Below, piece after piece: positions 9,454-26,122 of a DNA stretch of 32,000 nt (position 1 is its first letter; every line of letters starts with the position of its first letter). Source of the DNA: Rhodobacter capsulatus SB 1003 (lineage in GTDB: Bacteria; Pseudomonadota; Alphaproteobacteria; Rhodobacterales; Rhodobacteraceae); NCBI RefSeq assembly GCF_000021865.1, contig NC_014035.1, forward strand, positions 90,001 through 122,000, in the 5' to 3' direction. Under the pieces are notes generated by a model that saw only the letters and a program-made list of their open reading frames with translations, made no database searches and had not been told where the DNA came from. Position numbers and translations under genes: made by a program.

Positions 9454-9496
9454 CGGAAACGGACCCCCGCAGCAGAAAGGAGCACGAAAGCAACCC

Positions 9497-11784: not shown

Positions 11785-12741
11785 CTAGCCGCGGCCTCTT
11801 TGCGCCAGGAACGCGCAGACCAGAAGCTGGCTCATGTGATAAAGCATCGCGGGCAGGACGATTGCGCCGACCTGATCGGCAGGAAACAGCGCTGCGGCAA
11901 TCGGCAGGCCGGTGGCAATGCTTTTGGTGGCGCCGCAATAGAACAGCGCCGCGCGGTCGGCCGTCGGCAACCGGCAGGCCCGCCCGGCCATGACCATCGC
12001 CGCCATGCCAAGCGCCAGGAACAGCGCGATCACCCCGGCCAGCAGGATCAGCCGCAGCGCCGGGATCGCCTGCCACAGCCCCGCGATCGTGCCCGCGCTG
12101 AAGGCCGCATAGACGATCAGCAGGATCGAGCCGCGGTCCACCGCCATCGTCAGGCGCTTGTGCCGGGCCACCAGGCCGCCGATCCGCGGCCGCAGGATCT
12201 GCCCCAGCGCGAAGGGCAAAAGGATCTGCGTTCCGATGCCCGCCACCGCCCCGAGGCTGGTTCCGCCCCCGGCGCGATGCATCAGCAGCGTGACCAGAAG
12301 CGGCGTCAGCGCCACGCCGATCAGGTTCGACACCGAGGCCGCGCAGATCGCCCCCGGAACATTGCCCCCCGCCAGCGCGGTGAAGGCGATCGAGGATTGC
12401 ACGGTCGAAGGCAGCACCGACAGGAACAGCAGCCCCAGTGTCACATCCGGCCCCAGCACCGGGGCGAAGACCGCGGCAAAGCCGATCCCGAGCAGCGGAA
12501 ACAGCAGATAGGTTGCGCCAAAGGTCAGCCCCTGCAGCCGCCAGTTCAGCAGCTCCGCCCGCACCGTGCGCGGGTCCAGTTTCGCGCCGTACAGAAAGAA
12601 CAGCAGCCACACCGCCCCCCAGGTGACCTGTTTCAGCCCCGCCGCCAGCGCGCCCCCGGCGGGCAGGAAAACCCCTGCCAGCACCATCGCCAGCAAAAGA
12701 AGCATGTAGGTGTCGATGCCGAAGCGTTTGAGCGGGTTCAT
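11785..12741 (-). CDS. Bile acid:Na+ symporter (BASS) family membrane transporter, YfeH-like
   Basis: The protein is polytopic and hydrophobic, with LPSTVQSSIAFTALAGGN and FFLYGAKL motifs like YfeH/SBF-like proteins. The ATG at 12741 (MNPLKRF) has an AGGA RBS; the GTG at 12756 is less likely. Confidence 0.75.
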   Translation of the reverse strand: MNPLKRFGIDTYMLLLLAMVLAGVFLPAGGALAAGLKQVTWGAVWLLFFLYGAKLDPRTVRAELLNWRLQGLTFGATYLLFPLLGIGFAAVFAPVLGPDVTLGLLFLSVLPSTVQSSIAFTALAGGNVPGAICAASVSNLIGVALTPLLVTLLMHRAGGGTSLGAVAGIGTQILLPFALGQILRPRIGGLVARHKRLTMAVDRGSILLIVYAAFSAGTIAGLWQAIPALRLILLAGVIALFLALGMAAMVMAGRACRLPTADRAALFYCGATKSIATGLPIAAALFPADQVGAIVLPAMLYHMSQLLVCAFLAQRGRG

Positions 12742-12763
12742 CTTTCGTCCTTTCACGCAAGAG

Positions 12764-12813: not shown

Positions 12814-13383
12814 TCAGGCCGCGGTGGCGCCGCGGGCGCGGAGGATCGGCCAGGCCCGCTTGACCGACAGCGCGACCGCGGCGGTGATCCCCGCCTTGAC
12901 CAGATCGCCCGGGATGAAGGGGGCGGATCCCAGCGCGGCCGCCTTGAGCGACAGCCCCGCCTGTACCGCCAGCACCGGAACGCCGAGGCCATAGAGCACG
13001 ACGATGCCGCCGATCGTGGCAAAGACGAACGAGCGGAGCGCGGTCAGGCGTTTCCAGCCCAGCTCGTGCAGCAGGCCGGTCACATAGGCGGCCGGGATCC
13101 AGCCCAGCAGGAAGCCGACCGTCGGCCCGGCAAAGACGCCCAGCCCGCCGCGCCCGCCCGACAGGATCGGCAGCCCCAAAGCGACCAGCACGACGACAAG
13201 CCCCATCGCCAGCGCGCCGCGACGGGCACCGATGACCGCGCCCGCGAGCATCGGCCCCATCGATTGCGCGGTGATCGGAACGCCGATCAGCGGCAGGGTG
13301 ATCGGCGGAAACAGCGCCAAAGCGGCCGTCAGCGCCGCGAAAAGCGCGATCAGGACGATGTCGCGGGTGGAAAGGGAAGTCAT
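12814..13383 (-). CDS. bioY: BioY, biotin ECF-transporter substrate-capture (S) component
   Basis: A 189-aa protein with about six TM segments and BioY-like sequence (PITAQSMGPMLAGAVIG, GPTVGFLLGW, FIPGDLVKA). Confidence 0.9.
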   Translation of the reverse strand: MTSLSTRDIVLIALFAALTAALALFPPITLPLIGVPITAQSMGPMLAGAVIGARRGALAMGLVVVLVALGLPILSGGRGGLGVFAGPTVGFLLGWIPAAYVTGLLHELGWKRLTALRSFVFATIGGIVVLYGLGVPVLAVQAGLSLKAAALGSAPFIPGDLVKAGITAAVALSVKRAWPILRARGATAA

Positions 13384-13405
13384 CGCAGGGGTCCTTCGGA
13401 GGGGG

Positions 13406-13999
13406 TTATCGGGAAATGGCGGCGCCGTCGTGATGACCGGACCGGGCCTCGATCGCCTCGGCGACCTCGTCGGCGGTCTTGAGAACGCGCAGGATCAGCG
13501 GCAGGATCAGCGCCAGAGGATGGGTGCCAAGACCGCGCGCCGCCTGGGCTTCGCGCACCCGCAGCGCCTCGTCGCGGATCACCGGCAGGAAGCGCAGCGC
13601 CAGCGCCAGCGCCAGACCGACCTTGGCCGGGTTGACGCCGAGCGGCGCCAGCGGGGCCAGCAGCCGTTCCAGCGTCGCGATCAGATCTTCGGTGCGGGTG
13701 GTCAGGGTGACCAGCGCGGCGAGCAGGATCAGCGTCAGGATCCGCAGCACGACCAGCGCGGCCAGGCTCCAGCCCGCCAGCCAGCCCTGCACCGGAAAGA
13801 GGATCGCCAGCATCCACAGCAGCGGCGCGACCTGCGCCCGGATCTGCGCGCGGCCGAAGCCCGCCAGCCGGAAGCCCGCCAGCGTCAGCGCCAGCGCGGC
13901 CAGCATGATCGCGGGCGCTTCGACCAGCATCAGCCCGGTTCCGGCCAAGGCCAGCGCGGCCAGTTTCGGTCCCGGCGGGCAGCGGTGCAGGGGGCTCAT
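13406..13999 (-). CDS. bioN: BioN, ECF transporter transmembrane (T) component, CbiQ family
   Basis: A hydrophobic 197-aa protein with the C-terminal ARG motif region REAQAARGL. Its start overlaps the bioM stop. Confidence 0.85.
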   Translation of the reverse strand: MSPLHRCPPGPKLAALALAGTGLMLVEAPAIMLAALALTLAGFRLAGFGRAQIRAQVAPLLWMLAILFPVQGWLAGWSLAALVVLRILTLILLAALVTLTTRTEDLIATLERLLAPLAPLGVNPAKVGLALALALRFLPVIRDEALRVREAQAARGLGTHPLALILPLILRVLKTADEVAEAIEARSGHHDGAAISR

Positions 14000-14757
14000 G
14001 TCATCCGCTCCACATAGGACCGCAGCGCCGGGCCGGGTTCATCATCGGCGACGATCCGGCCCTGATCAAAGACCAGCACGCGGTCGAAACCGGCCAGCAG
14101 CGGCAGGTCATGGGTGACGACGATCGCCGTCTGTGCCAGATCGGCGATCACCTGCCCGATCCGGCGGGCATTGCGCAGATCCAGCAGCGTCGTCGGCTCG
14201 TCGAAGACGATGCAATCGGGCGCGGTGATCAGCACGCCCGCAATCGCCAGCAGCTGTTTTTGCCCGCCCGACAGCCGATGCGCCGGGGCCTGGCGCAGAT
14301 CGGCCAGGCCGAAACGGTCAAGGATCGCGGTGACTTTCGCGGCGCGCTCCGCCGCGCCGGACTTCTGGCCCTTGAGTCCGAAGGCGATGTCTTCCTCGAC
14401 CGTGGGCAGGACGATCTGGGTATCGGGGTTCTGAAACACGAAGCCGACCTTGCGCCGTACCGCCCTGGCCTCGCGGGCGGTCTCCAGCCCGTCGATGCGC
14501 ACCGTGCCGCGGTCGGGCAGCATCAGCCCGTTCAGCAATCGCGCAAACGTGCTTTTGCCCGACCCGTTCGCGCCGACGATGCCAATGCGCCGCTCGGTCA
14601 GGGTCACGGAGATCCCGCGCAGCACGTCGCGCCCGTCAAAGCTTTGAAAAACATCGGAAATTTGTATGGTGGTGGGTGCCGCAGGCAGGGAAGGAAGGGC
14701 ACTGCCTGCGGCGCCTTGCAACCGCAAGCTGCTGGCGACAATACTTGAAACCATCAT
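13996..14757 (-). CDS. bioM: BioM, ECF transporter ATPase (A) component
   Basis: Walker A GANGSGKST, Q-loop FVFQNPDTQ, signature LSGGQKQ and Walker B IVFDEPT are present. The start is ambiguous between ATG 14757/14754 and ATG 14787. Confidence 0.88.
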   Translation of the reverse strand: MMVSSIVASSLRLQGAAGSALPSLPAAPTTIQISDVFQSFDGRDVLRGISVTLTERRIGIVGANGSGKSTFARLLNGLMLPDRGTVRIDGLETAREARAVRRKVGFVFQNPDTQIVLPTVEEDIAFGLKGQKSGAAERAAKVTAILDRFGLADLRQAPAHRLSGGQKQLLAIAGVLITAPDCIVFDEPTTLLDLRNARRIGQVIADLAQTAIVVTHDLPLLAGFDRVLVFDQGRIVADDEPGPALRSYVERMT

Positions 14758-14824
14758 CGGTTTGCCCCATTTCACTTGTGGTTGCATGGTTCTGGTCACT
14801 CGGTTGGACGTTCCGCCAAGAAAA

Positions 14825-15586
14825 TCAACCGAAGAGAGCGGCGAGGGTCATGTAACCGACCGAGGGCACCATCAGGCAGCCGAAGCCGGTGTAGAAGGTC
14901 GCCGTCAGCGCGCCATAGGGCACCAGTTTCGGATCGGTCGCGGCAAGGCCCGCGCTGACACCGCTCGTCGTGCCCATCAGACCGCCGTAAACCGCCGCCG
15001 CCGCAGGCGTCGTCAGCCCCGCGGGTTTCGCCAGAAGCGGCGTCAGGATCATCACCGCGATGGATTTCACCACACCGGCCGCCACCGAAAGCGCGATCAC
15101 CTCCGACGAGGCGCCAAGCGCAGCCCCGGTCACCGGACCGACGATGAAGGTCGTCGCCCCGCCGCCGATCGTCGCCATGTCGACCACGCTCGTATAGCCG
15201 AAGGCATAGGCCACCGCCGCGCCGATCGCGGTCGAGATGATGACCGAAATCACCAGCGCGATGCCGCCCGCCAGACCGGCTTTCTTCACCTCTTCCAGTT
15301 TCACCCCGAAGGCGGTCGAGACGATGGCGAAATCGCGCAGCATCGCGCCGCCCATCAGCCCGAAGCCCGCGAACAGCGAGACATCCGAAATGCCCTTGCT
15401 GCCGCCGGTGACCTTGCCGCCGATATAGGCCAGCACCAGCCCCGCGACGATGGCGATGGCCGAACCGTGGATGCGGTTGTTGACCAGTTTGCCGATCGCA
15501 TAGGAAATCCACATGATCACGCCGACGATGGCGAAGGCGGTGATCAGCGGCAGTTTTTCCAGCGTCCCAACAATGATGTCGAGCAT
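14825..15586 (-). CDS. madM: MadM, malonate transporter subunit
   Basis: The start is the internal MLDIIVGTLEKLPLI at 15586, one nt after the madL stop (TGAcATG). The 253-aa polytopic protein has MadM-like sequence and is paired with madL. Confidence 0.85.
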   Translation of the reverse strand: MLDIIVGTLEKLPLITAFAIVGVIMWISYAIGKLVNNRIHGSAIAIVAGLVLAYIGGKVTGGSKGISDVSLFAGFGLMGGAMLRDFAIVSTAFGVKLEEVKKAGLAGGIALVISVIISTAIGAAVAYAFGYTSVVDMATIGGGATTFIVGPVTGAALGASSEVIALSVAAGVVKSIAVMILTPLLAKPAGLTTPAAAAVYGGLMGTTSGVSAGLAATDPKLVPYGALTATFYTGFGCLMVPSVGYMTLAALFG

Positions 15587-15587
15587 G

Positions 15588-15989
15588 TCATTTTGCTCCT
15601 TGCGCAGCGCGTTTGGCCGCGTCTTCGGTTTCGGCGGTGCCACCAAGCGCCGCCAGCGGACGGATCAGCAGGAAGCCGGCAACAACCGGCAGGAAACCGG
15701 CGATGAAGGCCATGGTGCCCGCATCGAAGGCCGCAACGACGTTCTGGCTGGCCGCCATGGCGACGACGATCGGAATATACATCGCCGACCAGAATTTGAT
15801 GCCGTCCTGCGCCAGTTCCGACATCCGCTCGCGGTCGATGAACCAGCGCGAGATGACGACCAAAAGCAGCATCGCGATGCCGACGCCGCCCACGTCGGCA
15901 TCGATGCCGACCATGTGCCCGATCAACTTGCCGATGATCACGCCTGCGATCAGGCAGCCGCTCATCAGCGAGACCCCGTAAATCAACAT
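15588..15989 (-). CDS. madL: MadL, malonate transporter subunit
   Basis: A 133-aa protein with four TM segments (MLIYGVSLMSGCLIAGVIIGKLIG). It has a strong AAGGAGGA RBS and is paired with madM. Confidence 0.85.
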   Translation of the reverse strand: MLIYGVSLMSGCLIAGVIIGKLIGHMVGIDADVGGVGIAMLLLVVISRWFIDRERMSELAQDGIKFWSAMYIPIVVAMAASQNVVAAFDAGTMAFIAGFLPVVAGFLLIRPLAALGGTAETEDAAKRAAQGAK

Positions 15990-16020
15990 GTCTTCTGTCC
16001 TCCTTGATCGGCGGAGAAGA

Positions 16021-16041
16021 GCGCCTGCCCCGTGCAGGCGC
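16021..16041 (-). other. Intra-operon GC stem-loop between madF and madL
   Basis: GCGCCTGC (16021-16028) pairs with GCAGGCGC (16034-16041): 8 bp with a 5-nt loop. On the minus strand it is followed by UCUUCUCC. It may be a partial terminator or an mRNA-stability element. Confidence 0.35.
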
Positions 16042-16055
16042 CCGTCCGCCTGTCC

Positions 16056-16265
16056 TTATTCGATGATCATGATCACCGCACCGGGTTTCAGACGGTCGCC
16101 CGGGTTGACGGCGATCGACTTCACCGTGCCGTCGATCGGCGCGGGGGTGTCGTTCTTCATCTTCATCGCCTCGACGACGGCGACGCATTGCCCCTTGGTG
16201 ACGGTGGCGCCCACCGCGACCTCGATCGAGACGATCACCGAGGGCATCTTCACTTTCACATCCAT
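16056..16265 (-). CDS. madF: MadF-like biotin carrier protein (69-aa biotinyl domain)
   Basis: It has the canonical biotinylation motif EAMKM within a lipoyl/biotinyl fold, and an AAAGGAAAAGG RBS. Confidence 0.88.
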   Translation of the reverse strand: MDVKVKMPSVIVSIEVAVGATVTKGQCVAVVEAMKMKNDTPAPIDGTVKSIAVNPGDRLKPGAVIMIIE

Positions 16266-17008
16266 TGCCTTTTCCTTTCTGGCTGTTTGATTGGGTGTTG
16301 CGGGTCGGGCCGCGCCGGGGGCGGGGCCTCGAAAAGGGAGATCAGGTGGGGGCGCTCGATCAGCTCGACGCCGGTGATGGTCTTGCCCAGCACCGAGCGC
16401 GCCCCCGACAGAAGTTCGGTCAGCTTGACGCCGATGCCGCCGGGCAGGGCGACTTCGGCATCGACCGCCAGGCCGCGCCGTTTCGCCAGCGTGGCCAGCA
16501 TCGTTGCCAGTTGTTCCAGCGCGCGCAGGCTCTCGGCGCGGACCACCAGATCAAGATCGGAGTCCGGGCGCAGATAGGGCAGGCCGGTCACCGTCTGCAG
16601 CGCGGCCGAGCCGATCAGGCCGATCTCGACCCCGGAGAGGGCGCCTGCGCGGGCGATCTCGGGCAGGGCGGGATGCAGGTTCGGGCCGAGGATCAGGGCG
16701 CGGTCCATCACCTCCCAGGGGGTGAAAAAGGCCGAAACCTGGCCGCGCCGCACCGGCACCGCGGCGCGCACCCGTTCGGCGCCGTGGCGGAACGGGAAGG
16801 AGAACCCGAGCTGGCCGCCGCCATCGGGGCAGGGGCCGGTGGGACGGCAGACGATGCCGGGGATATGCGCCTTGCTCATCGCGTCGCGCACCAGCTTGCG
16901 GGTGCCGGGGTCGCGCATCTGCTCGGGCAGCGCGTCAAGAACCGCGGCCAGGATGCCCGGGCGCGAGGCGGGCGAGACATGGGCAAGGCTGTGACGGATG
17001 CGGAACAT
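16256..17008 (-). CDS. mdcG: Malonate decarboxylase holo-ACP synthase (phosphoribosyl-dephospho-CoA transferase, MdcG-like; occupies the madK position)
   Basis: It has an MdcG-type nucleotidyltransferase motif (GLIGSAALQTVTGLPYLRPDSDLDLVV). Its ATG lies one nt after the madH stop. Confidence 0.75.
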   Translation of the reverse strand: MFRIRHSLAHVSPASRPGILAAVLDALPEQMRDPGTRKLVRDAMSKAHIPGIVCRPTGPCPDGGGQLGFSFPFRHGAERVRAAVPVRRGQVSAFFTPWEVMDRALILGPNLHPALPEIARAGALSGVEIGLIGSAALQTVTGLPYLRPDSDLDLVVRAESLRALEQLATMLATLAKRRGLAVDAEVALPGGIGVKLTELLSGARSVLGKTITGVELIERPHLISLFEAPPPARPDPQHPIKQPERKRQWM

Positions 17009-17009
17009 C

Positions 17010-18095
17010 TCAGCGCCTCTTGATCCAGGCGGGGTCGGTCTTGGCGCTTTGCGCCATGTCGCGCTGCGCGGTGACCAGCGTGTCGAAAAGCACCGTCGCC
17101 TCCGGGCCTTCGATCACGATCGGCGCGGCCCGGCCAAGCGCGGGCACCAGTTCCAGCCGCGTCGCCCCGGCCCCCACCGTCAGACCCTGCGCCACCTTCA
17201 CCACCCGGCTCTTGATGCGCAGGATGGTGCGGGCGGTCTTTTCGATCACCTCGGCGGCGGTGGCGGGGGTATGGGTGACGATCACCTCGTATTCCGGATA
17301 GGTGCGGGCGCGGCGATAGGTGATGATCCGCCCCGCGCGGTCGCAGACATGCCCGGCGTCGGACACGACGAAACTGTCGCCCATCGGCAGACCGCCCACG
17401 ACCAGTTCCCGCCAGGGATCGCCCAGAGGCGAGGGGACCAGCGAAATATCGGCGCGCAGCGGGCGGCCATCCAGCACCAGCCAGCCGAATTCCTGACAGC
17501 CGTAAAGATCGTGCACGGCATAGCCAAAGGCCTCGGCCACCGGCAAAAGCTCGGCATCCAGCGGCGTTCCGGCACACAGAAGCACGCAGCCCTGCGGCAT
17601 CCGCGGCTTCAGATCCAGCCGCAGGGCCTGTTCCAGCGTCGCGCGCAGGAACGAGGATTCGCCAAGGATCAGCCGCGGCTGCTCGCGGCAGGCGGCCAGC
17701 AACAGCGCATCGCGGCTGGAGCGTTCCAGATGCGACCAGACCAGGCCGCAGCCCTCAAGCGCCTGTTTTGAAAACACATTCACCAGCGGCGGATAGGTGA
17801 CAAGCATCCGTTCGCCCGCCGGGATCTGCAGCCGCCCGAAAATCTCCCGGGCGACTGCATTGCGGTTTTCCAGCTCGGCATGGGTCACGCCGACGATGGT
17901 CTGAAAGGCCGACGATCCGGTGGTGAAGGTCAGATAGGCCAGATTGAAGGGGGTGTGGACCTCCTCGATCACATGCGCCGCGGTGGGGCCCGCGATGCCC
18001 TTGTGCGCCAGCGTGCGGCGGGGCATTTCCGCCAAAGTCGGCACCGCGCCTTGCAGGCTCAGCGCGTCTTCGAGGGCTTTGAGATCGTCTGACAT
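17010..18095 (-). CDS. madH: Adenylate-forming ligase-like protein in the madH position (putative acetate:SH-ACP ligase)
   Basis: A degenerate P-loop-like TFTTGSSAF and YGCQEFG resemble PaaK/F390-synthetase-type ligases. It sits between the carboxyltransferase and holo-ACP synthase genes, as madH does. Confidence 0.6.
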   Translation of the reverse strand: MSDDLKALEDALSLQGAVPTLAEMPRRTLAHKGIAGPTAAHVIEEVHTPFNLAYLTFTTGSSAFQTIVGVTHAELENRNAVAREIFGRLQIPAGERMLVTYPPLVNVFSKQALEGCGLVWSHLERSSRDALLLAACREQPRLILGESSFLRATLEQALRLDLKPRMPQGCVLLCAGTPLDAELLPVAEAFGYAVHDLYGCQEFGWLVLDGRPLRADISLVPSPLGDPWRELVVGGLPMGDSFVVSDAGHVCDRAGRIITYRRARTYPEYEVIVTHTPATAAEVIEKTARTILRIKSRVVKVAQGLTVGAGATRLELVPALGRAAPIVIEGPEATVLFDTLVTAQRDMAQSAKTDPAWIKRR

Positions 18096-18129
18096 CTTCG
18101 TCTTCCTTTGGCCGTCGGTCTTTCGGGGC

Positions 18130-19023
18130 TCAGCGGCTGGGCGCGTAGCGATCCGCCACGGCGGCGAAATCGCGGCTCATCATCTCGATGACGCGGGGAC
18201 GCTCGATCCGGCCGCCGCGGGCTTCGCCCAGCTTGCCGCGGCCCCAGGGGCCAAGATCGTCCTGCCGTCCCTCCAGCTTCGCGGCCCGGACCTCGGCGAT
18301 CCGCGCGACGATGGCGGGGCGCATGCCATCGAGCGTCTCGACCAGCGCCTCGACGCCGCCAAGCGAGTGGAAGAAGCGCGGACCGGCGGCAAAGACGGCG
18401 CTTTGCTTCGACAGGACTTCCAGCGTTTCCAGATCCTTGCGGATGATCCGCGAGACCGAGGTCAAGGGCATCACATGGATCATCGTGCCGAATTGCGCAT
18501 CGAGCGACAGGATCGCATCGGCCTGCAGCCCGTGGCACAGGAACGCCCCCGAGATCGCCCGGCCGATCACCATGGCGATGATCGGATGGCCCTTCAGCCG
18601 CGCCTCGGCCAGCGCCAGCTGATAGGCGGCGGTCGATTTGTTCATGCCGAAGATTTCCTCGACCTTGCCCGGGCCGTTGCCGGGGGTGTCGACGATCAGC
18701 ACCAGCGGCCGTTTTTCCGCCAGCGGCTTTTCGGCATCCTCGATGATCGAGGCATAGACCGCCTCGGCCATCTTGTAGCCTTCCTCCAGCCCGATGATCC
18801 CGGCGTAGACCACCGGGAATTTCTCGTTCATCGCGCCGCCATCCGAGGCGATGATCGTGCAGACCGTGCCTTGCAGCGTCGCGGTGCCGACGACCGCGCC
18901 CGGCCCGAATTCGGGATCGTCGAAGCTTTTCGCCCCCACGGTGCCCTCGGCGAAGCTGCCCGCATCGACGATCATCTCGATCGCGTCGCGGCCCCGCCCC
19001 ATCATGCTTTCCTGCATGTCCAT
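18130..19023 (-). CDS. madD: Malonate decarboxylase carboxyltransferase subunit (MadD / MdcE gamma-like)
   Basis: Carboxyltransferase-alpha-like sequence is present (LVLIVDTPGNGPGKVEE, IIAMVIGRAISGAFL). Confidence 0.85.
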   Translation of the reverse strand: MDMQESMMGRGRDAIEMIVDAGSFAEGTVGAKSFDDPEFGPGAVVGTATLQGTVCTIIASDGGAMNEKFPVVYAGIIGLEEGYKMAEAVYASIIEDAEKPLAEKRPLVLIVDTPGNGPGKVEEIFGMNKSTAAYQLALAEARLKGHPIIAMVIGRAISGAFLCHGLQADAILSLDAQFGTMIHVMPLTSVSRIIRKDLETLEVLSKQSAVFAAGPRFFHSLGGVEALVETLDGMRPAIVARIAEVRAAKLEGRQDDLGPWGRGKLGEARGGRIERPRVIEMMSRDFAAVADRYAPSR

Positions 19024-19042
19024 GATTTTTCTCCTTTTCGGG

Positions 19043-19999
19043 TCAGACGGCGAGACGGCGCACAGTGGCCAGAAACTCGGACAGGGGCAGGTCGATCAGC
19101 CCGTGGGCGTCAGTGTTGCCCGCCCGCGTCCAGACATCGGTCGCATCAGAGGGTTGCATCTCGGCCGCCAGCGCCACGGCGCGCAGCTGCGCCTTGACCT
19201 TGGCGGGCGAACCGATGCGGCGCATCTCCTCGAAGGCCTCGATCGAAAGCCCGGCCAGCGCCGAGACCTGCTCGCGGAAGGCCGCGACGGTGTTTTCGAC
19301 CAGGAAATTCGCATCGCCCATGATGAACTTGTGCCGCCCGCCGGTGGTGCGGTAGACAAGCGCGCGGTCAGAGGCGTCGAATTCCTCCTTGCCCATTTCC
19401 TGCTCGATCACCTCGGGGCCGGTCAGGCCAAGGCGGCCGAATTCCGACATGATGATCACGTCGGTGGCGGCGGCGACGAAGCCCATCCCGCCAAAGGCGC
19501 CGACCTTGGAGCCGATCAGCGCGATCACCGGCACCTTGCCGCGGGCCTTTTGCAGCTGGTCCATCACCTCGGCATGGGCCAGAAGCCCGGCGTTGGCCTC
19601 GTGCAGCCGCACGCCGCCGGTCTCGAAGGAAATCACCACGAGGGGCTTTTCCTCTTCGTCGAGGTCGTCGAATTGCGCCACAAGATCGTCATGGAAGTCG
19701 ATCGCCAGCTTGATCGTGTTGACCATTTTCGCGCCGCCGATCTCGCCGACCGAGCCGCCGATGAAGCGGCCTTCCTGCGAGATCACGAAAACGGGGGTGC
19801 GGCCGATCTTGCCGACGCCGGTGACGATGCCGTCGTCAAAGGCCACGGCATCGCCGAGCAGGGCCAGGTGCGGGCTGGTCACCCGGTCGAAGGGGCCGGC
19901 CAGTTCGGTGAAGCTGCCCTCGTCCACCAGACCGATGGCACGGTCGCGGGCCGAGGCTTCAAGGAAGCTGCGGGGTTGCAGGTCTGTCCAGTTGGTCAT
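19043..19999 (-). CDS. madC: Malonate decarboxylase carboxyltransferase subunit (MadC / MdcD beta-like)
   Basis: The start is the internal MTNWTDLQPRSFLEASARDR at 19999, with a GGAGAG RBS. Carboxyltransferase-beta-like sequence is present (GGSVGEIGGAKM, FETGGVRLHEANAGL). Confidence 0.85.
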   Translation of the reverse strand: MTNWTDLQPRSFLEASARDRAIGLVDEGSFTELAGPFDRVTSPHLALLGDAVAFDDGIVTGVGKIGRTPVFVISQEGRFIGGSVGEIGGAKMVNTIKLAIDFHDDLVAQFDDLDEEEKPLVVISFETGGVRLHEANAGLLAHAEVMDQLQKARGKVPVIALIGSKVGAFGGMGFVAAATDVIIMSEFGRLGLTGPEVIEQEMGKEEFDASDRALVYRTTGGRHKFIMGDANFLVENTVAAFREQVSALAGLSIEAFEEMRRIGSPAKVKAQLRAVALAAEMQPSDATDVWTRAGNTDAHGLIDLPLSEFLATVRRLAV

Positions 20000-20013
20000 C
20001 TCGTCTCTCCGCC

Positions 20014-20322
20014 TCAGGCCGCGGCCAGCGCCTGTTGCAGGCGCAACAGCACGACGGCGGGGGTGGCGTTGTTGTCGTTGATCTCGATGCGGGCGTCGCA
20101 AAGCCCGGACTCGTCGAGGAATTTCTGCAAGACGCGGGTCCAGAGCGCGTCAAAGCCGGTGACGGGGGTGACCACGGTCACCGCGACGCGGCCCGAAAGG
20201 TCTTCGGGATGCATCATGATTTCCAGATCGCTGGATCCGGTGACGCCCACATGCAGGCGGGCTTGGATCTTCGTCTTCGGCGCGGCGGCGGCCAGATCCA
20301 GGGTGAGAGTGTGCAAGGCCAT
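20014..20322 (-). CDS. madE: Malonate decarboxylase acyl carrier protein (MadE / MdcC delta)
   Basis: A 102-aa protein with the prosthetic-group serine motif VGVTGSSDLE. It lies between the alpha and beta subunit genes. Confidence 0.85.
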   Translation of the reverse strand: MALHTLTLDLAAAAPKTKIQARLHVGVTGSSDLEIMMHPEDLSGRVAVTVVTPVTGFDALWTRVLQKFLDESGLCDARIEINDNNATPAVVLLRLQQALAAA

Positions 20323-20336
20323 GATTTTGCCTGTCT

Positions 20337-22010
20337 TTACCAGTTGCGGAAGCGGGCGGGCGGGTTGTAAAGGCCGCCGGACCAGGTCACGAGATCGCGC
20401 ATGCTTTTCGCGGCCAGCAGGTCGCGGTTGGCACGGGCGGGGTTGATGCCCAGATCGGAGACGGTCTTGACGATGCCCGCCTCGCGCAGGGCGCGGGTTT
20501 CTTCGGGTTTCGCGGCAAGGCCGATGTCGGTGAAGCCCGCGACGGCGCGGATGGCGGCCATGCGGGCCTCCATGTCCTTGCAGCGGTTCAGGTAGGCGAT
20601 GCCTTCCTCGGTGACGATATGGGTCAGGTCGTCGCCGTAGATCATCACCGGCGGGATCGGCAGATCGGCATCCCGCGCCAGTTTCCAGGCGTCAAGTTCG
20701 TCGACAAAGACCGGGGCACGGCCCTCGCCGAAGGTTTCAACCCCTTGCACCACAAGGCGTTTGCCGCGCGGCAGATTGCCGATGTCACGCTCGAGCGAGG
20801 GCAGTTCCTGGCCGCATTTCAGCCAGGCGTCGGTCGGGTGGCGCCGCCCCTTGGCATCGCAGCCCATGTTCGGCGCGCCGCCGAAGCCGGCCACCCGGCC
20901 CGCCGTCGCGGTCGAGGAGTTGCCGTATTTGTCGATCTGCAGCGTGCCGCCGATGAACATGTCGATGGCGTAATGCCCCGCCGTCTGGGCAAAGGCCCGG
21001 TTCGAGCGCAGCGAGCCGTCCGGCCCCACGAAGAACACGTCCGGCCGCGAGGCGACGTAATCTTCCATGCCCAACTCACCGCCGAAGCAATGGATCGTGT
21101 CGACCCAGCCTTCCTCGATCGCCGGGATCATGGTCGGATGCGGGTTCAAGATCATATGCGTGCAGCATTTGCCCTTGAGCCCCAGTTCCAGACCATAGGT
21201 CGGCAGGATCAGTTCAATGGCCGAGGTCAAAAAGCCGATGCCGTGGTTCATCGAGCTGACGCCATATTCGGCATAGATCCCCTTCAGGCACATCATCGCC
21301 AAAAGGATCTGGCTGTCGGTCACCAGCGCCGGATCGCGGGTGAAAAGCGGCTCGATGAAGAACGGCTTCGGCGATTGGATCACCGCATCCACCCAGTCGC
21401 CCGGAATATCGACGCGCGGCAGTTCGTCAACGATTTCATTGACCTGCGCGATGACGATGCCTTCGCGGAACTTTGTCGCCTCGACGATGGCGGGGGTGTC
21501 TTCGGTGTTGAAGCCGGTGTAAAGGTTGCCCTTGCGGTCAGCCTTGTAGGCGCAGACGAGCGAGACCCGCGGCGTCAGGTCCAGGAAGTAGCGGCCGAAA
21601 AGTTCCAGATAGGTGTGGATCGCGCCCAGCTCGATCTTGCCATTGGCGATGAATTTCGCCACCCGCCCGGCTTGCGGCCCGCCAAAGGCGAAGTCGAGTT
21701 TCTTGGCGATGCCGTTTTCAAAGAGATCCAGATGCGCGGGCAGCGGCACCGCCGATTGCACCATGTGCAGGTCATGGATCTTGCCGCGGTCAACCTTGTT
21801 CAGGCATTCGGCCAGGAAGTCGGCCTGTTTCTGGTTGTTGCCTTCGATGTTGATGATGTCGAAGGGGCGGATCACCGCTTCCAGAAGCGCCACCGTATCC
21901 TTGGCGAGCACTTCCTTGCCCTTGACATAGAGGGGCGCTGCCGCCTCCTTGCGCGCGGCGGTATCTTCCGCCCGCTTGCGCCAGCTGTTGCGCTTGTCTT
22001 GCTGCGTCAT
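20337..22010 (-). CDS. madA: Malonate decarboxylase alpha subunit (acetyl-S-ACP:malonate ACP transferase, MadA/MdcA)
   Basis: A 557-aa protein with MdcA-like sequence throughout and the characteristic C-terminus PPARFRNW. It has a strong GAAGGAGGAAG RBS. Confidence 0.92.
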   Translation of the reverse strand: MTQQDKRNSWRKRAEDTAARKEAAAPLYVKGKEVLAKDTVALLEAVIRPFDIINIEGNNQKQADFLAECLNKVDRGKIHDLHMVQSAVPLPAHLDLFENGIAKKLDFAFGGPQAGRVAKFIANGKIELGAIHTYLELFGRYFLDLTPRVSLVCAYKADRKGNLYTGFNTEDTPAIVEATKFREGIVIAQVNEIVDELPRVDIPGDWVDAVIQSPKPFFIEPLFTRDPALVTDSQILLAMMCLKGIYAEYGVSSMNHGIGFLTSAIELILPTYGLELGLKGKCCTHMILNPHPTMIPAIEEGWVDTIHCFGGELGMEDYVASRPDVFFVGPDGSLRSNRAFAQTAGHYAIDMFIGGTLQIDKYGNSSTATAGRVAGFGGAPNMGCDAKGRRHPTDAWLKCGQELPSLERDIGNLPRGKRLVVQGVETFGEGRAPVFVDELDAWKLARDADLPIPPVMIYGDDLTHIVTEEGIAYLNRCKDMEARMAAIRAVAGFTDIGLAAKPEETRALREAGIVKTVSDLGINPARANRDLLAAKSMRDLVTWSGGLYNPPARFRNW

Positions 22011-22040
22011 TTGCTTTCGTCTTCCTCCTTCAGAGGGTTT

Positions 22041-22871
22041 TCAAAGGGTTGCCTGCGTCGCGGCGAGGGGGATCTCGCCGAAGATGACGCTGTGAAGGGT
22101 GCCGTCGGCGGTGCGCAGACAGAGCGCGCCATCCGGGCCAAGCGCCTCGGCGATGCCCTGACGGGGGGCTTGCGGGGCGGAAAGGGTGACGGGCTGGCCC
22201 AGCGTGCAGGAGCGCACCGACCAGGCATGCCGGGCGGGCTCGAAGCCGAGGCGTTCCCATTCGGTCAGCCGGTGGTCGAGCCGTTCGACCAGCGCCGCGA
22301 AAAGATCGAAGCGGTCGACCTTGCGGCCGGTTTCGGCGCTGATCGAGGTGGCGATGGCTTGCAGCTCCGGCGGGAAATCCGTGCGGTTCTGGGCGATGTT
22401 GATGCCGATGCCCGCGATGATGTGATCCAGATCGCCTTCGGGGGTCAGCACCAGTTCGCACAGGATGCCCGAAAGCTTGCGGCCCGCGACCATCAGGTCG
22501 TTCGGCCATTTGATTTGCGGCGCAAGGCCCGTGCTGCGGGTGATGGCCTCGGCCGCGGCGACGGCGATGACAAGCGTCACCTGCGCCAGATCGGCCAGAG
22601 GGCGGGAGGGACGCAGAAGCACCGAGGCGAGCAGGCTTTCCCCGGGACGCGAAACCCAGGGTCGGTCGTATTTGCCCCGTCCGGCCGTCTGATGATCGGC
22701 CAGAACGATGGTGCCCGTGGGCGCGCCCCTCCGCGCCAGACCGGCCAGGAAGCTGTTTGTGGAGGACAGAACGGGCCGGTGGTGGACCGCGCAGCCGATC
22801 CCGGTCCGACGCCGGACGGGAAGGGCAAGCGTCGGGAGGTTCGGGAGAAGATCGGGATGGTGCGCGGTCAT
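22041..22871 (-). CDS. birA: Biotin-[acetyl-CoA-carboxylase] ligase, group I (no N-terminal HTH)
   Basis: BirA motifs are present: the biotin-binding loop HQTAGRGKYDRPW and KWPNDLMVAGRKLSGILCE. It has an AGGAG RBS and is embedded between madB and madA. Confidence 0.9.
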   Translation of the reverse strand: MTAHHPDLLPNLPTLALPVRRRTGIGCAVHHRPVLSSTNSFLAGLARRGAPTGTIVLADHQTAGRGKYDRPWVSRPGESLLASVLLRPSRPLADLAQVTLVIAVAAAEAITRSTGLAPQIKWPNDLMVAGRKLSGILCELVLTPEGDLDHIIAGIGINIAQNRTDFPPELQAIATSISAETGRKVDRFDLFAALVERLDHRLTEWERLGFEPARHAWSVRSCTLGQPVTLSAPQAPRQGIAEALGPDGALCLRTADGTLHSVIFGEIPLAATQATL

Positions 22872-22906
22872 GGGTTTGCTCCTGTGAGCGGGTCAGGGAC
22901 GGTCGG

Positions 22907-24115
22907 TCAGTTGACCAGACCGATGGTCGAGGCGAAGACACCGACGGCGATGGCCGAGACGATGACCCCGCAGATCGAGGCGCCCATGGCGAGCGGCATG
23001 ATCATGGCGTGGGGGTTGGCTTCGAAGGCTTCCTTCTGGGCGATCTTCGCGGTCGAGGGCATGCAGGAGACGCCGGCGATACCGATGACGGGGTTGTAAT
23101 TGCCCTTCGACAGTTTCCAGACCAGATAGCCGCCGCCGATGCCGCCAAGCGCCGAGACGGCCAGCGCGGTGATGCCAAGGATCAGCAGCAGCGCGACTTG
23201 CGGATCAAGCAGGGTTCCGGCTTCGCACAGCGTCCCCAGCACCAGGCCCAGAAGCAGGGTCGAGGCGTAAGTGACGGTGTTTTCAAGGAACTTCTGGTAG
23301 GGCTCGATTTCCGCTTCCTTGATCGCGACGCCGAGGAAGAACGACAGGATCAGCGGCGTGGCGACGGGCAGCAGCAGGCACAGCAGACCGGCGGCAACCA
23401 CGGTGAAGATGAATTTCGCCTGCGGCGTGACATCGGGGAAGTCGTAATCGACTTCGATGGCGCGGTGCTCTTCCTTGATCAGCCAGCGCACCAGATAGGG
23501 GTAGCCCGCATAGGTCAGCGACAGATAAAGATAGGCGATGATCGAGATCGGCACGAAGAGGTTCTTCGCCATCATCAGCGAGCCAAAGAGCACCATCGGA
23601 CCATCGGCGCCGCCGATCGTGCCCACGGCCGCGGCTTCACCGGGCGTCAGGCCGCAATAGTAACCGATCACCAGCGTCACGAAGGTGCCCAGTTCCGCGC
23701 AGACCGCGACCGCGATCGAGGCCCAGGGCCGGGCGAGGATGAAGGAAATGTCCGCCATCGTGCCGATGCCCATGAAGAGCATGCAGGCCACCAGCGAGTT
23801 GACGAAGGTGAAGTTGTAGATCGGCTGCAGGAAGTTGATCTGCATGATGTCCATGAGCGCATTCGTCTCGGATACCAGGGGCGAGATCACCAGCGTGCCG
23901 ACCTGGCCGCCTTCCAGGATCATCACGCCGGCGTTGACCGCCATCATGCCAAGGCCCATCGGCACCATGATCAGCGGTTCCAGCGTGCGCTTGAAGCCCA
24001 GATAGGCCAGCAGGAAACCAAGCCCGATGAACGCCAGACGGGCGAAGGAAATCAGCGGGTCCTGGATGAAGAGTGTCCCGATACCGGGAAAGATGTTGAA
24101 CAGGGTCTCAAGCAT
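22907..24115 (-). CDS. madB: Membrane carboxybiotin decarboxylase, Na+-translocating decarboxylase beta-subunit family (MadB/OadB/GcdB)
   Basis: A 402-aa polytopic protein with OadB-family motifs (TIGGADGP, IGIAGVSCMPSTAK, PLAMGASICG). Confidence 0.88.
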   Translation of the reverse strand: MLETLFNIFPGIGTLFIQDPLISFARLAFIGLGFLLAYLGFKRTLEPLIMVPMGLGMMAVNAGVMILEGGQVGTLVISPLVSETNALMDIMQINFLQPIYNFTFVNSLVACMLFMGIGTMADISFILARPWASIAVAVCAELGTFVTLVIGYYCGLTPGEAAAVGTIGGADGPMVLFGSLMMAKNLFVPISIIAYLYLSLTYAGYPYLVRWLIKEEHRAIEVDYDFPDVTPQAKFIFTVVAAGLLCLLLPVATPLILSFFLGVAIKEAEIEPYQKFLENTVTYASTLLLGLVLGTLCEAGTLLDPQVALLLILGITALAVSALGGIGGGYLVWKLSKGNYNPVIGIAGVSCMPSTAKIAQKEAFEANPHAMIMPLAMGASICGVIVSAIAVGVFASTIGLVN

Positions 24116-24124
24116 TTGAGCGCC

Positions 24125-24241
24125 TCAGGATGCGTTGGGAGAGGAGAGGAGTTTCGAGATGCCGACGATCACGCCGATCACCGCAAAGGAGATCGCGGCG
24201 GTGATCAGGTAGCTGAAGGCGGCATAGGTGATGATGTTCAT
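24125..24241 (-). CDS. 38-aa single-TM peptide, candidate accessory subunit of the membrane decarboxylase
   Basis: MNIITYAAFSYLITAAISFAVIGVIVGISKLLSSPNAS. A GAGG RBS lies 7 nt before its ATG, which is 7 nt after the madG stop. Its stop lies 9 nt before the madB ATG, and that gap holds a GAGG RBS. Confidence 0.5.
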   Translation of the reverse strand: MNIITYAAFSYLITAAISFAVIGVIVGISKLLSSPNAS

Positions 24242-24248
24242 GGATGCC

Positions 24249-25205
24249 TCAGGGGTTGCAGGGGGCGAAGGGCAGGGCCTCCGCGGGGAAGATCGGGGGC
24301 AGCTCGCCCCCGGAAAGCGCATCGACGCCAAGGGTCACGGCCAGAAGATCGGCCGCGCCGCCGGGGCTGATGTGTCGTTCGATGAACCGCGCATCGAGCG
24401 CGTGGATCGCCGCCAGCCCGTCGCCGGTCAGCGCGCCGCCAAGGGCGAGGATCTTGCGGGCCTCGGTCCGCATGAAGCTCAGCGCCGCGGGACCGCCGCG
24501 CCACAGCACGGTGGTGTCCTCGGTCTCGGCCATCAGCGCGATCAGCGTGTGGCACAGGCTGGTGGCCAGCGTCGCGCCGCTGGCGCGGGCGGCGCGCAGG
24601 GCGGGCAGGCCGTGGTTGCGCACGGTCGGATAGCCCGCCTCGGCCTCGCCGCGGATGCCAAGGACACCGTATTGACGAAACAGTTTCTCGCCCGCGGTTT
24701 CGGCCTCGCGGTGCAATCCGGCGCGCAATTCGCGGTCGCAGATCCCGGCGACCATCGCCGCGGCGGTGTCGAACAGCGCCGCCTCGGTCAGGTCGTCCCT
24801 GCGGGCGGCCAGCCCCGCCGCCGCCGCCAGCACGCCCGCCGAAAACAGCAGCCCGCGCTGGGTGTTGACGCCGCGCGTCGCGGCCAGAAGCCGGGCCTCG
24901 TAGATCTCGCCGATGGCGCGCACCCGGGGCAGCAGCGTCAGGGCCGGGCCGGCATGGTCAAGCCCGGCCTCCGCGCATTGGTAAAGACAGGGCGCAATCA
25001 CCGCCGAAGAGACCATGAAGGTCTGCAGGTTCATGTCCCGATGCGCGCCGTTCGAGCGCGGCGTCACCAGACCGGGTTTGGGATGGGTGGAGATTTCCAG
25101 CAGCGCCCCGGTCAGGAAAGCCGATCCGATCGACCAGGCGCTGGTTTGCGGTGACAAGGCAATGTCGCTGAACCAGTCCAGCGGCCTGCGCAACGCGTAT
25201 TTCAT
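24249..25205 (-). CDS. madG: Triphosphoribosyl-dephospho-CoA synthase (MadG / MdcB / CitG family)
   Basis: CitG-family motifs are present (THPKPGLVTP, ISPGGAADLLA). The ATG at 25205 (MKYALRRPL) is preferred over the TTG at 25223. Confidence 0.88.
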   Translation of the reverse strand: MKYALRRPLDWFSDIALSPQTSAWSIGSAFLTGALLEISTHPKPGLVTPRSNGAHRDMNLQTFMVSSAVIAPCLYQCAEAGLDHAGPALTLLPRVRAIGEIYEARLLAATRGVNTQRGLLFSAGVLAAAAGLAARRDDLTEAALFDTAAAMVAGICDRELRAGLHREAETAGEKLFRQYGVLGIRGEAEAGYPTVRNHGLPALRAARASGATLATSLCHTLIALMAETEDTTVLWRGGPAALSFMRTEARKILALGGALTGDGLAAIHALDARFIERHISPGGAADLLAVTLGVDALSGGELPPIFPAEALPFAPCNP

Positions 25206-25567
25206 GGGTTTCGTCCCGCGCAACTGACGGCAGCGCGGCGCTTCGTGAACGCCAGGCGTTCCACGGCCAATGCAGGGATTACCTCTGGTCGGGGAAACCG
25301 TCAGACATGCGCCACACCGATGTCACTTGCTCACGCGGCGCTTTGGGTTCGTCAGCCGTCGCAGCCCCACGCGGGCAGACGGCTCATCACGGGATCACGG
25401 CCCTGTCGGGCAGCTTCGCCTCACGTCCTTGTGATCGTTCGTGATCCGAAGCATGGCAGCATCGTTACGCCTGTCGCCCGGGCTTGTCCAGAAATCGTTT
25501 TCAGGGCGCAAGAGGCTGCGTCAAAGCGCCGCAGTTTTGCAGCTATTCATGGCAAAATCAATGACTT

Positions 25568-25583
25568 GGCAAAAATGGAGCCA
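25568..25583 (-). promoter_or_regulatory. Sigma-54-like -24/-12 element facing madG
   Basis: The minus strand reads TGGCTCCATTTTTGCC, which has the exact GG-N10-GC spacing of TGGCAC-N5-TTGC. It lies about 360 nt upstream of the madG ATG. No enhancer-binding protein gene is present in the window. Confidence 0.35.
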
Positions 25584-25650
25584 GCTTTGCAACAGCGGCG
25601 CGCGGGAATTGGCCCGCGGCTTGCGGCTCGCGTTTTCGTCAACGGCGACA

Positions 25651-25689
25651 GGCGATTGCGGCGCGGCGGCAGGCCGGGCGGCAATCGCC
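25651..25689. repeat. 9-bp perfect inverted repeat GGCGATTGC-N21-GCAATCGCC (extendable with mismatches)
   Basis: It lies 17 nt after the hutP-like stop and about 110 bp upstream of the predicted sigma-54-type start. It could be an activator UAS or an RNA hairpin ending the hutP-like transcript. No U-tract follows. Confidence 0.4.
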
Positions 25690-25705
25690 ATGCAGCCATG
25701 GAAGT

Positions 25706-26122
25706 CTAGATATGCATCACCCCGAAGCCGATGCGTTCGTGGTTCGTCGTGGGATGAAAGGCCGATTCGCCATGCGCGGCGACGGCGACCCAGTGCCCGT
25801 CCGAGACCAGCGCCACCTTGAGCTTGAGGTTCGATTCCGCCACCACCGTCGCCGAGACCCCCTGCAGGCATTCCAGCCCGGCGTGAATCACCCCGTGCAC
25901 GGCGCCCGGGCGGTTGTGGATCACCCCGCCGTTCAGCGCACAGGCGACGATCGACTTGACGAAGCCCTTTTCGATTTCGGACCGCCGCCCGGTGACATAG
26001 GTGATCCCCACCTTCCAGGTCGGATGGGCCAGGATCTGCTCCTTGATCAGGTCTTCCTCTTCGCGGCTGCTGATGGCGGCCATGATGGCGGCCTTGCCGA
26101 TTCTGTCTGCTGTGACTTGCAT
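25706..26122 (-). CDS. HutP-family protein (putative ligand-dependent RNA-binding antiterminator)
   Basis: This 138-aa protein aligns by eye with B. subtilis HutP. AVHGVIHAGLECLQGV matches ALYHATMEALHGV, WVAVAAHGE matches WIAVSLYGT, and the C-terminus IGFGVMHI matches TFGVGINHI. The HxxxH pair and the C-terminal His are retained. Confidence 0.7.
   Translation of the reverse strand: MQVTADRIGKAAIMAAISSREEEDLIKEQILAHPTWKVGITYVTGRRSEIEKGFVKSIVACALNGGVIHNRPGAVHGVIHAGLECLQGVSATVVAESNLKLKVALVSDGHWVAVAAHGESAFHPTTNHERIGFGVMHI

Follow-up and report, generated by a model that had tools for sequence, protein, structure and literature searches.

The window analyzed here comprises 32,000 nucleotides of the Rhodobacter capsulatus SB 1003 genome (contig NC_014035.1, positions 90,001 to 122,000 of the forward strand), in which a Malonomonas-type, biotin-dependent and membrane-bound malonate decarboxylase (Mad) gene cluster on a repABC replicon had been predicted from the sequence alone. 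Open reading frame (ORF) calling guided by G+C content at third codon positions, together with translation, placed 16 tightly packed minus-strand genes at 12814-25205 in an unbroken chain with intergenic gaps of -10 to 66 nt (Table 1). The original prediction had counted 17 genes, a number that is reached by adding either the SBF-like transporter gene or the HutP-family gene on the two sides of the chain. All of the genes that it had named are found on the minus strand where it had placed them, and the assignments from Pfam and NCBIfam profile searches, by which window proteins were allotted to families, agree with its names. These searches confirmed every gene of the chain except those for the 38-aa peptide and MadH. 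The latter had no match in the local Pfam and NCBIfam libraries and no sequence relative in the PDB; a near-identical copy on an R. capsulatus plasmid record (L083) carries a precomputed match to PF27502 (MadH_C). The start codon of bioM is uncertain, the ATPase domain beginning near residue 45 of the longest ORF. The predicted repABC cassette was recognized by Pfam. The window is 99.9% identical to the R. capsulatus repABC plasmid record CP198943.1 (132,949 bp), in which RepC is identical, and its MadB is identical to ADE87387.1 of strain SB1003. We infer that the replicon is plasmid pRCB133 (133 kb).

Table 1. Features of the window, with amino acid identity (%) of the encoded proteins to Malonomonas rubra Mad cluster proteins and to Mdc proteins of Caballeronia grimmiae plasmid p1
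Feature	Coordinates	Strand	Description and family evidence	M. rubra	C. grimmiae
HutP-family gene	25706-26122	-	138 aa; first gene of conserved module, candidate RNA-binding regulator; Pfam HutP PF09021, E=1e-34	46
Leader	25206-25705	-	500 nt, HutP-family gene to madG; 3′ 290 nt (25206-25500) strongly conserved in Rhodobacter
Leader hairpins	25414-25451 and 25309-25341		Compensatory pairs
GUGA-N4-GUGA sets	25387-25398 and 25323-25334	Sense strand of leader
madG	24249-25205	-	Triphosphoribosyl-dephospho-CoA synthase, 318 aa; PF01874 CitG (CitG/MdcB); TIGR03132, 334 bits	46	40
Peptide gene	24125-24241	-	38-aa hydrophobic peptide with a single transmembrane (TM) segment, directly upstream of madB; no family match
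madB	22907-24115	-	Membrane carboxybiotin decarboxylase, 402 aa; PF03977 OAD_beta; TIGR03136	66
birA	22041-22871	-	Class I biotin protein ligase, 276 aa, without helix-turn-helix domain; TIGR00121, PF03099, PF02237
madA	20337-22010	-	Acetyl-S-ACP:malonate ACP transferase (ACP, acyl carrier protein), 557 aa; TIGR01110, 936 bits	71	58
madE	20014-20322	-	ACP, 102 aa; TIGR03130; G-S-S-D-L-E serine motif	44	36
madC	19043-19999	-	Carboxyltransferase subunit, 318 aa; PF01039; TIGR03133	65	41 (MdcD)
madD	18130-19023	-	Carboxyltransferase subunit, 297 aa; PF06833; TIGR03134	69	34 (MdcE)
madH	17010-18095	-	Putative ACP-SH:acetate ligase, 361 aa; full-length match to M. rubra MadH	56
madK	16256-17008	-	Holo-ACP synthase, MdcG type, 250 aa; PF10620, PF20866, TIGR03135	28
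madF	16056-16265	-	69-aa biotin carrier; PF00364 Biotin_lipoyl; biotinyl-Lys35 in EAMKM	42
madL	15588-15989	-	Malonate carrier subunit, 133 aa; PF03817, TIGR00807	50	45
madM	14825-15586	-	Malonate carrier subunit, 253 aa; PF03818, TIGR00808	61	60
bioM	13996-14799	-	Energy-coupling factor (ECF)-type ABC ATPase; PF00005; best NCBIfam match an ECF ATPase model, below cutoff
bioN	13406-13999	-	ECF T component, 197 aa; PF02361 CbiQ
bioY	12814-13383	-	Biotin S component, 189 aa; PF02632 BioY
SBF-like (DUF4137) transporter	11785-12756	-	57 nt after bioY; PF13593, E=8e-82
repA-repB-repC	7139-10780	+	ParA-type ATPase, ParB_N + RepB, RP-C + RP-C_C; replication/partition cassette

To our knowledge, biochemical work on the Mad enzyme has been confined almost entirely to M. 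rubra. The core order G-B-A-E-C-D-H-K-F-L-M that the prediction had given for that species was verified on contig FQZT01000031 of M. rubra DSM 5091, which carries a HutP-family gene, madG, a 47-aa ORF, madB-A-E-C-D-H-K-F-L-M, and then an EamA-type gene. All 11 core proteins of the window have full-length orthologs there, with 28 to 71% identity. The M. rubra cluster, which encodes a Na+ pump (EC 7.2.4.4), and the R. capsulatus cluster have in common their components and order, the HutP-family gene, the small peptide, the MadF and MadE motifs, and the Na+-site residues of MadB. The EAMKM motif of MadF aligns with EALKM of M. rubra MadF, and the serine motif of MadE (G-S-x-D-L-E) aligns with those of M. 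rubra MadE and Caballeronia MdcC. The two clusters differ in that M. rubra has no birA, which in R. capsulatus lies between madB and madA, and in that bioMNY follow madM in R. capsulatus; the EamA-type gene follows madM in M. rubra, whereas the R. capsulatus plasmid has the SBF-like transporter gene there. Unlike M. rubra, R. capsulatus is a facultative phototroph and its cluster is plasmid-borne.

As the reference for the Mdc type of malonate decarboxylase, we used the biotin-independent cluster on C. grimmiae plasmid p1. Mdc clusters (mdcABCDEGH(LM)R of Klebsiella, Pseudomonas, and Acinetobacter) share with the window the α subunit, the ACP, the β and γ subunits, and MdcB, MdcG, and MadLM homologs at 34 to 60% identity, but the Mdc type has MdcH and a LysR regulator, both absent here, and has neither a membrane β subunit nor a biotin carrier nor MadH. 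When the proteins were compared one by one, those that are shared were consistently closer to M. rubra Mad than to Caballeronia Mdc, and MadB, MadF, and MadH had no counterparts in the Caballeronia cluster. An MdcH homolog was not detected by tblastn anywhere in the window, in agreement with the predicted lack of an mdcH transacylase gene, and a Pfam scan did not detect any OadA-, MmdA-, or GcdA-type α subunit in the cluster. The window therefore does not have the makeup of an Mdc-type system, which would include MdcH and no biotin or membrane parts: MdcH is missing, and MadB, MadF, and BirA are present. It holds MadB, MadF, MadA/E/C/D, and MadG/K/H, in the gene order without MdcH and with the β-subunit residues described below.

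The 402-aa protein that had been taken for a membrane carboxybiotin decarboxylase is found within the decarboxylase β-subunit family (PF03977; TIGR03136). It scores 793 bits against the MadB equivalog TIGR03136, for which the cutoff is 597 bits, compared with 180 bits against the general β-subunit model and approximately 140 bits against the OadB models. OadB of oxaloacetate decarboxylase (OAD) is homologous to MadB (Salmonella β3γ3 entries 6IVA and 6IWW; E=6e-38 over residues 99-395), and we did not detect any PDB relative of MadB besides Salmonella OadB; enterobacterial OadB genes show approximately 33% identity to MadB in tblastn matches. In the OAD system the carboxyl group passes through the fused OadA, whereas the Mad system uses malonyl-ACP, MadC and MadD, and a free 69-aa carrier. 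Residues of OadB that are essential or bind Na+ have been identified by mutagenesis (PMC7274780), and in our alignment MadB E46, D171, Y197, N341, G345, S350, and S387 correspond to OadB E40, D203, Y229, N373, G377, S382, and S419. The residues of the first Na+ site, Asp171 and Ser350, are strictly conserved across MadB proteins, and we infer that decarboxylation by MadB would be coupled to Na+. MadB-like β subunits with 58 to 62% identity also occur in loci that lack madA or madE, from Oscillospiraceae, Gracilibacteraceae, and Flavonifractor (L038, L041, L049-L055, L058-L061); these loci carry a 69-aa biotin carrier, the micro-peptide, and a long carboxyltransferase. Because MadB-like subunits are found without madA and madE, and once beside methylmalonyl-CoA mutase, these gene neighborhoods indicate that the MadB clade is not restricted to malonate decarboxylases.

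Family matches, gene order, and closeness to M. rubra support the Malonomonas-type assignment, and the biotin carrier and membrane β subunit on which the original prediction had built are both present (MadF with EAMKM; MadB with TIGR03136). It is very probable that the region is an intact Malonomonas-type, biotin-dependent malonate decarboxylase operon on a pRCB133-type repABC plasmid, most likely regulated by the HutP-family protein through the leader. Several points weigh against this reading. The equivalent of OadB Asn412, a residue of the second Na+ site, is Ser380 in MadB and varies across MadB proteins, so that stoichiometry and ion specificity are not fixed by sequence. We found no paper with biochemical or genetic evidence that any Rhodobacter uses malonate or that its decarboxylation of malonate is avidin-sensitive, membrane-associated, or Na+-dependent. 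MadC and MadD match NCBIfam equivalogs that are labeled “biotin-independent” β and γ subunits (TIGR03133, TIGR03134, NF005530), and for these subunits sequence models alone therefore cannot separate the two enzyme types. Such labels, together with an older SB1003 annotation and some other sources that call MadB an oxaloacetate decarboxylase β subunit, would fit a soluble, biotin-independent Mdc-type enzyme, with madB and madF being part of an unrelated oxaloacetate or methylmalonyl-CoA decarboxylase. However, MdcH is absent from the window, MadB passes the MadB-specific equivalog and not the OadB models, the cluster has no OadA-, MmdA-, or GcdA-type α subunit with which such a decarboxylase could be formed, and madB, madF, and madH are interleaved with madA/E/C/D/K as in M. 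rubra, an arrangement kept in at least 40 genomes. An Mdc-type enzyme is highly improbable here and is already contradicted by the sequence evidence. The automatic annotation of Mad clusters is self-contradictory, MadC and MadD being named biotin-independent inside a biotin-dependent cluster (18130-19999 in the window).

An ORF of 37 to 47 aa is found immediately upstream of madB-type genes in every phylum checked, M. rubra included (L005-L062), with the consensus MNIxxYALxxYGLTAVISxAVIGVIVxINK; it is often left uncalled by gene finders. It also precedes the MadB-like β subunits of loci without madA and madE. In Flavonifractor porci (L049:9859-9999) its neighbors are a 520-aa carboxyltransferase on one side and the β subunit on the other, and genes for methylmalonyl-CoA mutase, MeaB, and an epimerase-like protein adjoin. 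The δ-subunit gene of methylmalonyl-CoA decarboxylase operons has a comparable position, and in the OAD system oadG adjoins the β gene, much as the gene for the single-TM peptide stands beside madB. Membership of the peptide in an OadG/GcdD/MmdD group was considered and rejected, as neither Pfam nor the PDB gave a sequence link and the resemblance is one of position and single-TM topology: 22 peptide homologs had no match to OAD_gamma (PF04277) at E≤10, and the peptide matched no Pfam family and no PDB entry, the OadG chains of 6IVA and 6IWW included. OadG has a C-terminal tail (residues 61-84; PMC7274780) for which the 38-aa peptide is too short to hold a counterpart. Its position and topology suggest that the peptide is probably a small membrane micro-subunit associated with the β subunit.

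The mechanism that we propose for R. capsulatus extends to it the steps of the M. rubra enzyme (PMC8085960; PMC7274780), completed from general knowledge of Mad and Mdc systems. Malonate would be imported by MadL and MadM. MadG would make 2′-(5″-triphosphoribosyl)-3′-dephospho-CoA, which MadK would attach to Ser30 of MadE and whose thiol would be acetylated by MadH. MadA would exchange the acetyl for a malonyl group on the ACP with release of acetate, MadC and MadD would move the free carboxyl group to the biotin on Lys35 of MadF, and MadB, probably joined by the 38-aa peptide, would decarboxylate the carboxybiotin with export of Na+. BirA and BioMNY would be alphaproteobacterial additions that provide for biotin supply and for its attachment to the minimal 69-aa carrier. 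The acetate would enter carbon assimilation, and the exported Na+ would at least recycle the intake by MadLM symport.

Malonate is an inhibitor of succinate dehydrogenase, and in a phototroph the main gain from the pathway may be carbon, in the form of acetate, together with malonate removal, ion export at least paying for uptake. An alternative is that the cluster serves primarily malonate detoxification and carbon acquisition and not energy conservation, MadB export only balancing the Na+ taken in by MadLM or MadB moving H+ instead. The hosts are mostly purple non-sulfur phototrophs that do not rely on decarboxylation energy, the second Na+-site residue of OadB is not kept in MadB proteins, as noted above, and MadLM of M. 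rubra is Na+-dependent according to a review (PMC8085960), all of which would suit this alternative. We nevertheless regard it as unlikely, since Asp171, Ser350, and the membrane subunit as a whole are strictly conserved and a soluble Mdc enzyme would suffice for those ends without a membrane subunit, a biotin carrier, and a dedicated ligase.

To determine the distribution of the cluster, genomes were scanned at one per species, and MadB relatives were found to be encoded in 154 genomes. Eighty loci were fetched with 10-kb flanks, 43 of which have madB together with madA, madC, and madD. The arrangement HutP-family gene-G-peptide-B-birA-A-E-C-D-H-K-F-L-M-bioM-bioN is present in all ten Rhodobacter genomes retrieved (five of the R. 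capsulatus group, R. aestuarii, R. maris, R. lacus, R. viridis, and sp. TJ_12), with bioY wherever the flank reached it. The same module is found in Afifella, in three Breoghania genomes, in Roseospira, and, on the chromosome, in Rhodospirillum rubrum ATCC 11170, and the 17-gene module is under purifying selection in all of these genera; Rhodopseudomonas palustris BisB18 has the same arrangement minus the HutP-family gene. Of the accessory genes, birA is linked to 29 of the 43 mad loci and is absent from M. rubra, and bioM and bioN are linked in 16 to 17 of the 43, essentially the alphaproteobacterial group. Mad clusters also occur in Klebsiella grimontii, K. spallanzanii, Kluyvera, Phytobacter, Raoultella, Desulfovibrionaceae, Deferribacteraceae, Bacillota, and Eggerthellaceae. 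In the enterobacterial clusters (L028, L033-L035, L040, L057, and hit H5, including a K. pneumoniae record), MadB is 59 to 66% identical to that of the window.

The cluster had been described as a transferable module borne on a mobile replicon. This is valid for some strains only, since the copies of R. capsulatus SP18 and SP36, which are in records labeled chromosome, and that of R. rubrum are chromosomal. A megablast search of PLSDB with the 12.4-kb region gave four weak matches only (71 to 74% identity, at most 9% coverage), to mdc or madM genes, the plasmid itself being absent from that collection, and the single close tblastn match to MadB in PLSDB was a Klebsiella record of chromosome size. 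It had also been foreseen that the cluster might prove common and already characterized in the genus: common it is, as the ten Rhodobacter genomes show, but we found no paper that characterizes it. In NCBI records, MadB already bears its correct name for R. capsulatus, Cereibacter (on a plasmid), Rhodobium, Afifella, Breoghania, Roseospira, Rhodovastum, R. rubrum, Rhodoplanes, and Bradyrhizobium oligotrophicum. The identification is correct, but automatic annotation had already made it, for a cluster that is common in the genus.

The original prediction had noted the lack of an MdcR/MatR-type regulator, which is literally true, but the HutP-family gene of the conserved module sits just outside the stretch that it had considered. 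A homolog of this gene is found upstream of madG in M. rubra (Table 1), and HutP-family genes are linked to 37 of the 43 mad loci. Their position varies with phylum. Alpha- and deltaproteobacterial loci have the gene ahead of madG, and those of Bacillota and Actinomycetota have it between madB and madA. In Enterobacteriaceae, most of whose Mad clusters carry a distant HutP-family gene, it follows madM. The window protein aligns end to end with the HutP structures 4OK9, 1VEA, and 1WMQ. It keeps the equivalents of His73, His77, His138, and Glu81 of Bacillus subtilis HutP (a His-x3-His motif and a C-terminal His) and not that of Arg88; in the B. subtilis numbering, the three histidines belong to the metal site and Arg88 to the L-histidine pocket. 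Nucleotide synteny with other Rhodobacter strains and species stops at approximately 26200, just upstream of the HutP-family gene. A PAS protein encoded at 26228-27466 was considered as a further member of the module and rejected, as it lies beyond this break and is kept in one other strain only.

The spacer between the HutP-family gene and madG ranges from approximately 380 to 540 nt in Rhodobacter, R. rubrum, M. rubra, and a Desulfovibrionaceae genome, and in Rhodobacter alignments conservation is much stronger in its 3′ 290 nt than in the remainder. We did not detect in it any leader ORF conserved across genera, a scan of the whole window at Rfam gathering thresholds gave no match, and nhmmer with the Rhodobacter leader matched Rhodobacter only. 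The two hairpins of the leader are supported by five pairs changed on both sides, with 96% of cells paired compared with 26 to 47% when partners were slid, although only two clades contribute, which amounts to few independent events.

The sense strand of the leader carries GUGA-N4-GUGA pairs (Table 1); across lineages, this repeat is often a triple, e.g., GUGAucuuGUGAuuucGUGA. GUGA repeats in two sets 50 to 90 nt apart are found upstream of madG in Afifella, Breoghania, Roseospira, R. rubrum, four alphaproteobacterial metagenome-assembled genomes (MAGs), M. rubra, and a Desulfovibrionaceae genome (among these loci L087:8371-8885, L022:1999-2379, L016, L017, and L018). The M. rubra and Rhodobacter leaders have this repeat core in common and are not alignable in sequence. 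At least one GUGA-N3-5-GUGA pair within 420 nt was detected in 10 of 11 lineages, against 0.01 to 0.04 expected by shuffling, and no GUGA pair was detected on the antisense strand of the leaders of the 11 lineages. The single exception, Rps. palustris BisB18, is without the HutP-family gene, and three deltaproteobacterial or unclassified loci without that gene are also without the repeats, making four such loci in all. Intrinsic terminators are clear in the leader or just after the HutP-family gene of low-GC relatives, with GAGU or GUGA repeats nearby; these relatives include Neobacillus, Propionispira, a Clostridia MAG, Adlercreutzia, Rubneribacter, and Desulfovibrionaceae. In the MAG loci, recognizable promoters lie upstream of the repeats.

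The arrangement resembles that of the B. subtilis hut operon, which is likewise headed by a HutP-family gene followed by a long leader, and whose regulator has the same metal-coordinating histidines. Both leaders contain short repeats that are spaced by 4 nt and grouped in two sets, built on a UAG core with a 7-nt period in hut and on a GUGA core with an 8-nt period in mad, and separated by 12 to 17 nt in hut compared with 50 to 90 nt in mad. Unlike the hut system, the pathway regulated here would be malonate decarboxylation, the L-histidine-binding Arg88 has no equivalent in the mad protein, and the high-GC leader of Rhodobacter shows no evident terminator. In B. subtilis, a terminator stem is flanked by the two sites to which HutP binds, each made of three XAG repeats spaced by 4 nt (PMC2425495). 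Canonical HutP sites of the form AG-N5-AG-N5-AG were looked for and rejected as the basis of recognition: the window leader has none, and one chance-level match (L015) was found among the 18 leaders scanned.

We propose that the HutP-family protein would act on the structured, GUGA-repeat leader RNA to control mad expression, and, with moderate confidence, that this control is probably antitermination by a new branch of HutP. Weighing against such a regulator are the absence of canonical HutP UAG-N4 repeats from the leader, the lack of a clear intrinsic terminator in the Rhodobacter leader, and the existence of HutP-bearing loci without GUGA pairs (L023, L026, L032, and those of Enterobacteriaceae); a search for periodic repeats upstream of the clusters of Enterobacteriaceae and of several Bacillota found none. 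The protein could instead be an accessory or assembly factor that does not bind RNA, the GUGA motifs being DNA operators for another factor or simply lineage-specific sequence. In Bacillota and Actinomycetota the gene is internal to the operon, with madB on one side and madA on the other, which would be in keeping with such a role, as would the missing canonical sites, the lost Arg88 equivalent, and the enterobacterial clusters without periodic repeats. Yet the Pfam HutP match is full length and includes the metal-site histidines, the repeats occur on one strand only, within transcribed leaders, and in the MAG loci they follow recognizable promoters, their two sets of two to three repeats with 4-nt spacers mirror the XAG-rich B. 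subtilis sites (PMC2425495), and low-GC relatives have leader terminators. We consider a role outside RNA binding possible but clearly short of an even chance. Antitermination remains our preferred explanation, and a broader proposal can be put forward tentatively, as one that falls only somewhat short of being evenly balanced: a dicarboxylate-responsive HutP branch, its ligand probably malonate with a metal, would read two (GUGA-N4) sets across phyla, and pumps of the MadB clade would carry a single-TM subunit of approximately 40 residues that is absent from current models.

The spacer between madF and madL also has features of interest. In Rhodobacter (15990-16055 in the window) it contains a GC-rich hairpin, in R. 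rubrum (L087:18238-18304) GUGA motifs and a terminator-like hairpin, and in Afifella, Breoghania, and Roseospira (L010, L012-L015, approximately 18170-18360) GUGA-N4-GUGA pairs. It may be a second control point, placed before the carrier genes.

Downstream of madM, the A, T, and S units of an ECF biotin transporter BioMNY are encoded together (PF00005, PF02361, PF02632). Identity with the prototype R. capsulatus BioMNY of the Eitinger laboratory was considered and rejected because of mismatches with its 235-aa BioM, 11-nt bioN/bioY overlap, and TTG start; the plasmid bioMNY genes are probably a second, paralogous copy that specifically serves the mad operon. The SBF-like gene adjoins bioY in R. 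capsulatus plasmid contigs and is possibly cotranscribed with it. Between repC and the SBF-like gene, an EAL-domain gene (approximately 10900-11766) is annotated in near-identical contigs. On the far side of repABC, 113-6928 encodes a TonB-dependent receptor, an FecCD permease, and an ABC ATPase, an iron-siderophore uptake set, and an AraC-type regulator is annotated in the same region of the near-identical R. capsulatus contigs L084 and L085. Positions 1000-3000 have 76 to 78% G+C and a strong AT skew.

Our literature searches did not reveal any paper that describes mad genes or malonate decarboxylation in purple bacteria, Rhodobacter included, or any that links HutP with malonate. One review lists KEGG MadC and MadD orthologs in its table of pathways of purple non-sulfur bacteria, and a 2025 review of RNA-binding antiterminators treats HutP for the Bacillus hut operons only. 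The HutP-type regulator with GUGA repeats and the conserved micro-peptide appear to be undescribed in the literature searched.

The biotin-dependent malonate decarboxylase is usually said to belong to anaerobes, a statement that is to be qualified, as the enzyme is widespread in purple non-sulfur bacteria and is encoded by some Klebsiella, Kluyvera, Phytobacter, and Raoultella. The complete and apparently intact SB1003 copy offers a practical genetic system for the assembly of the complex, the pumped ion, and regulation. Strains DE442 and R121, which are without pRCB133 genes (PMC3924369), can serve at once as natural controls, and a chromosomal copy is available in R. rubrum ATCC 11170. The new biology is likely to be found in a regulator of the HutP family that differs in its RNA repeat and in a conserved micro-subunit; if the proposals made here for the HutP branch and the micro-subunit are true, R. 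capsulatus and R. rubrum would be genetically tractable hosts for both.

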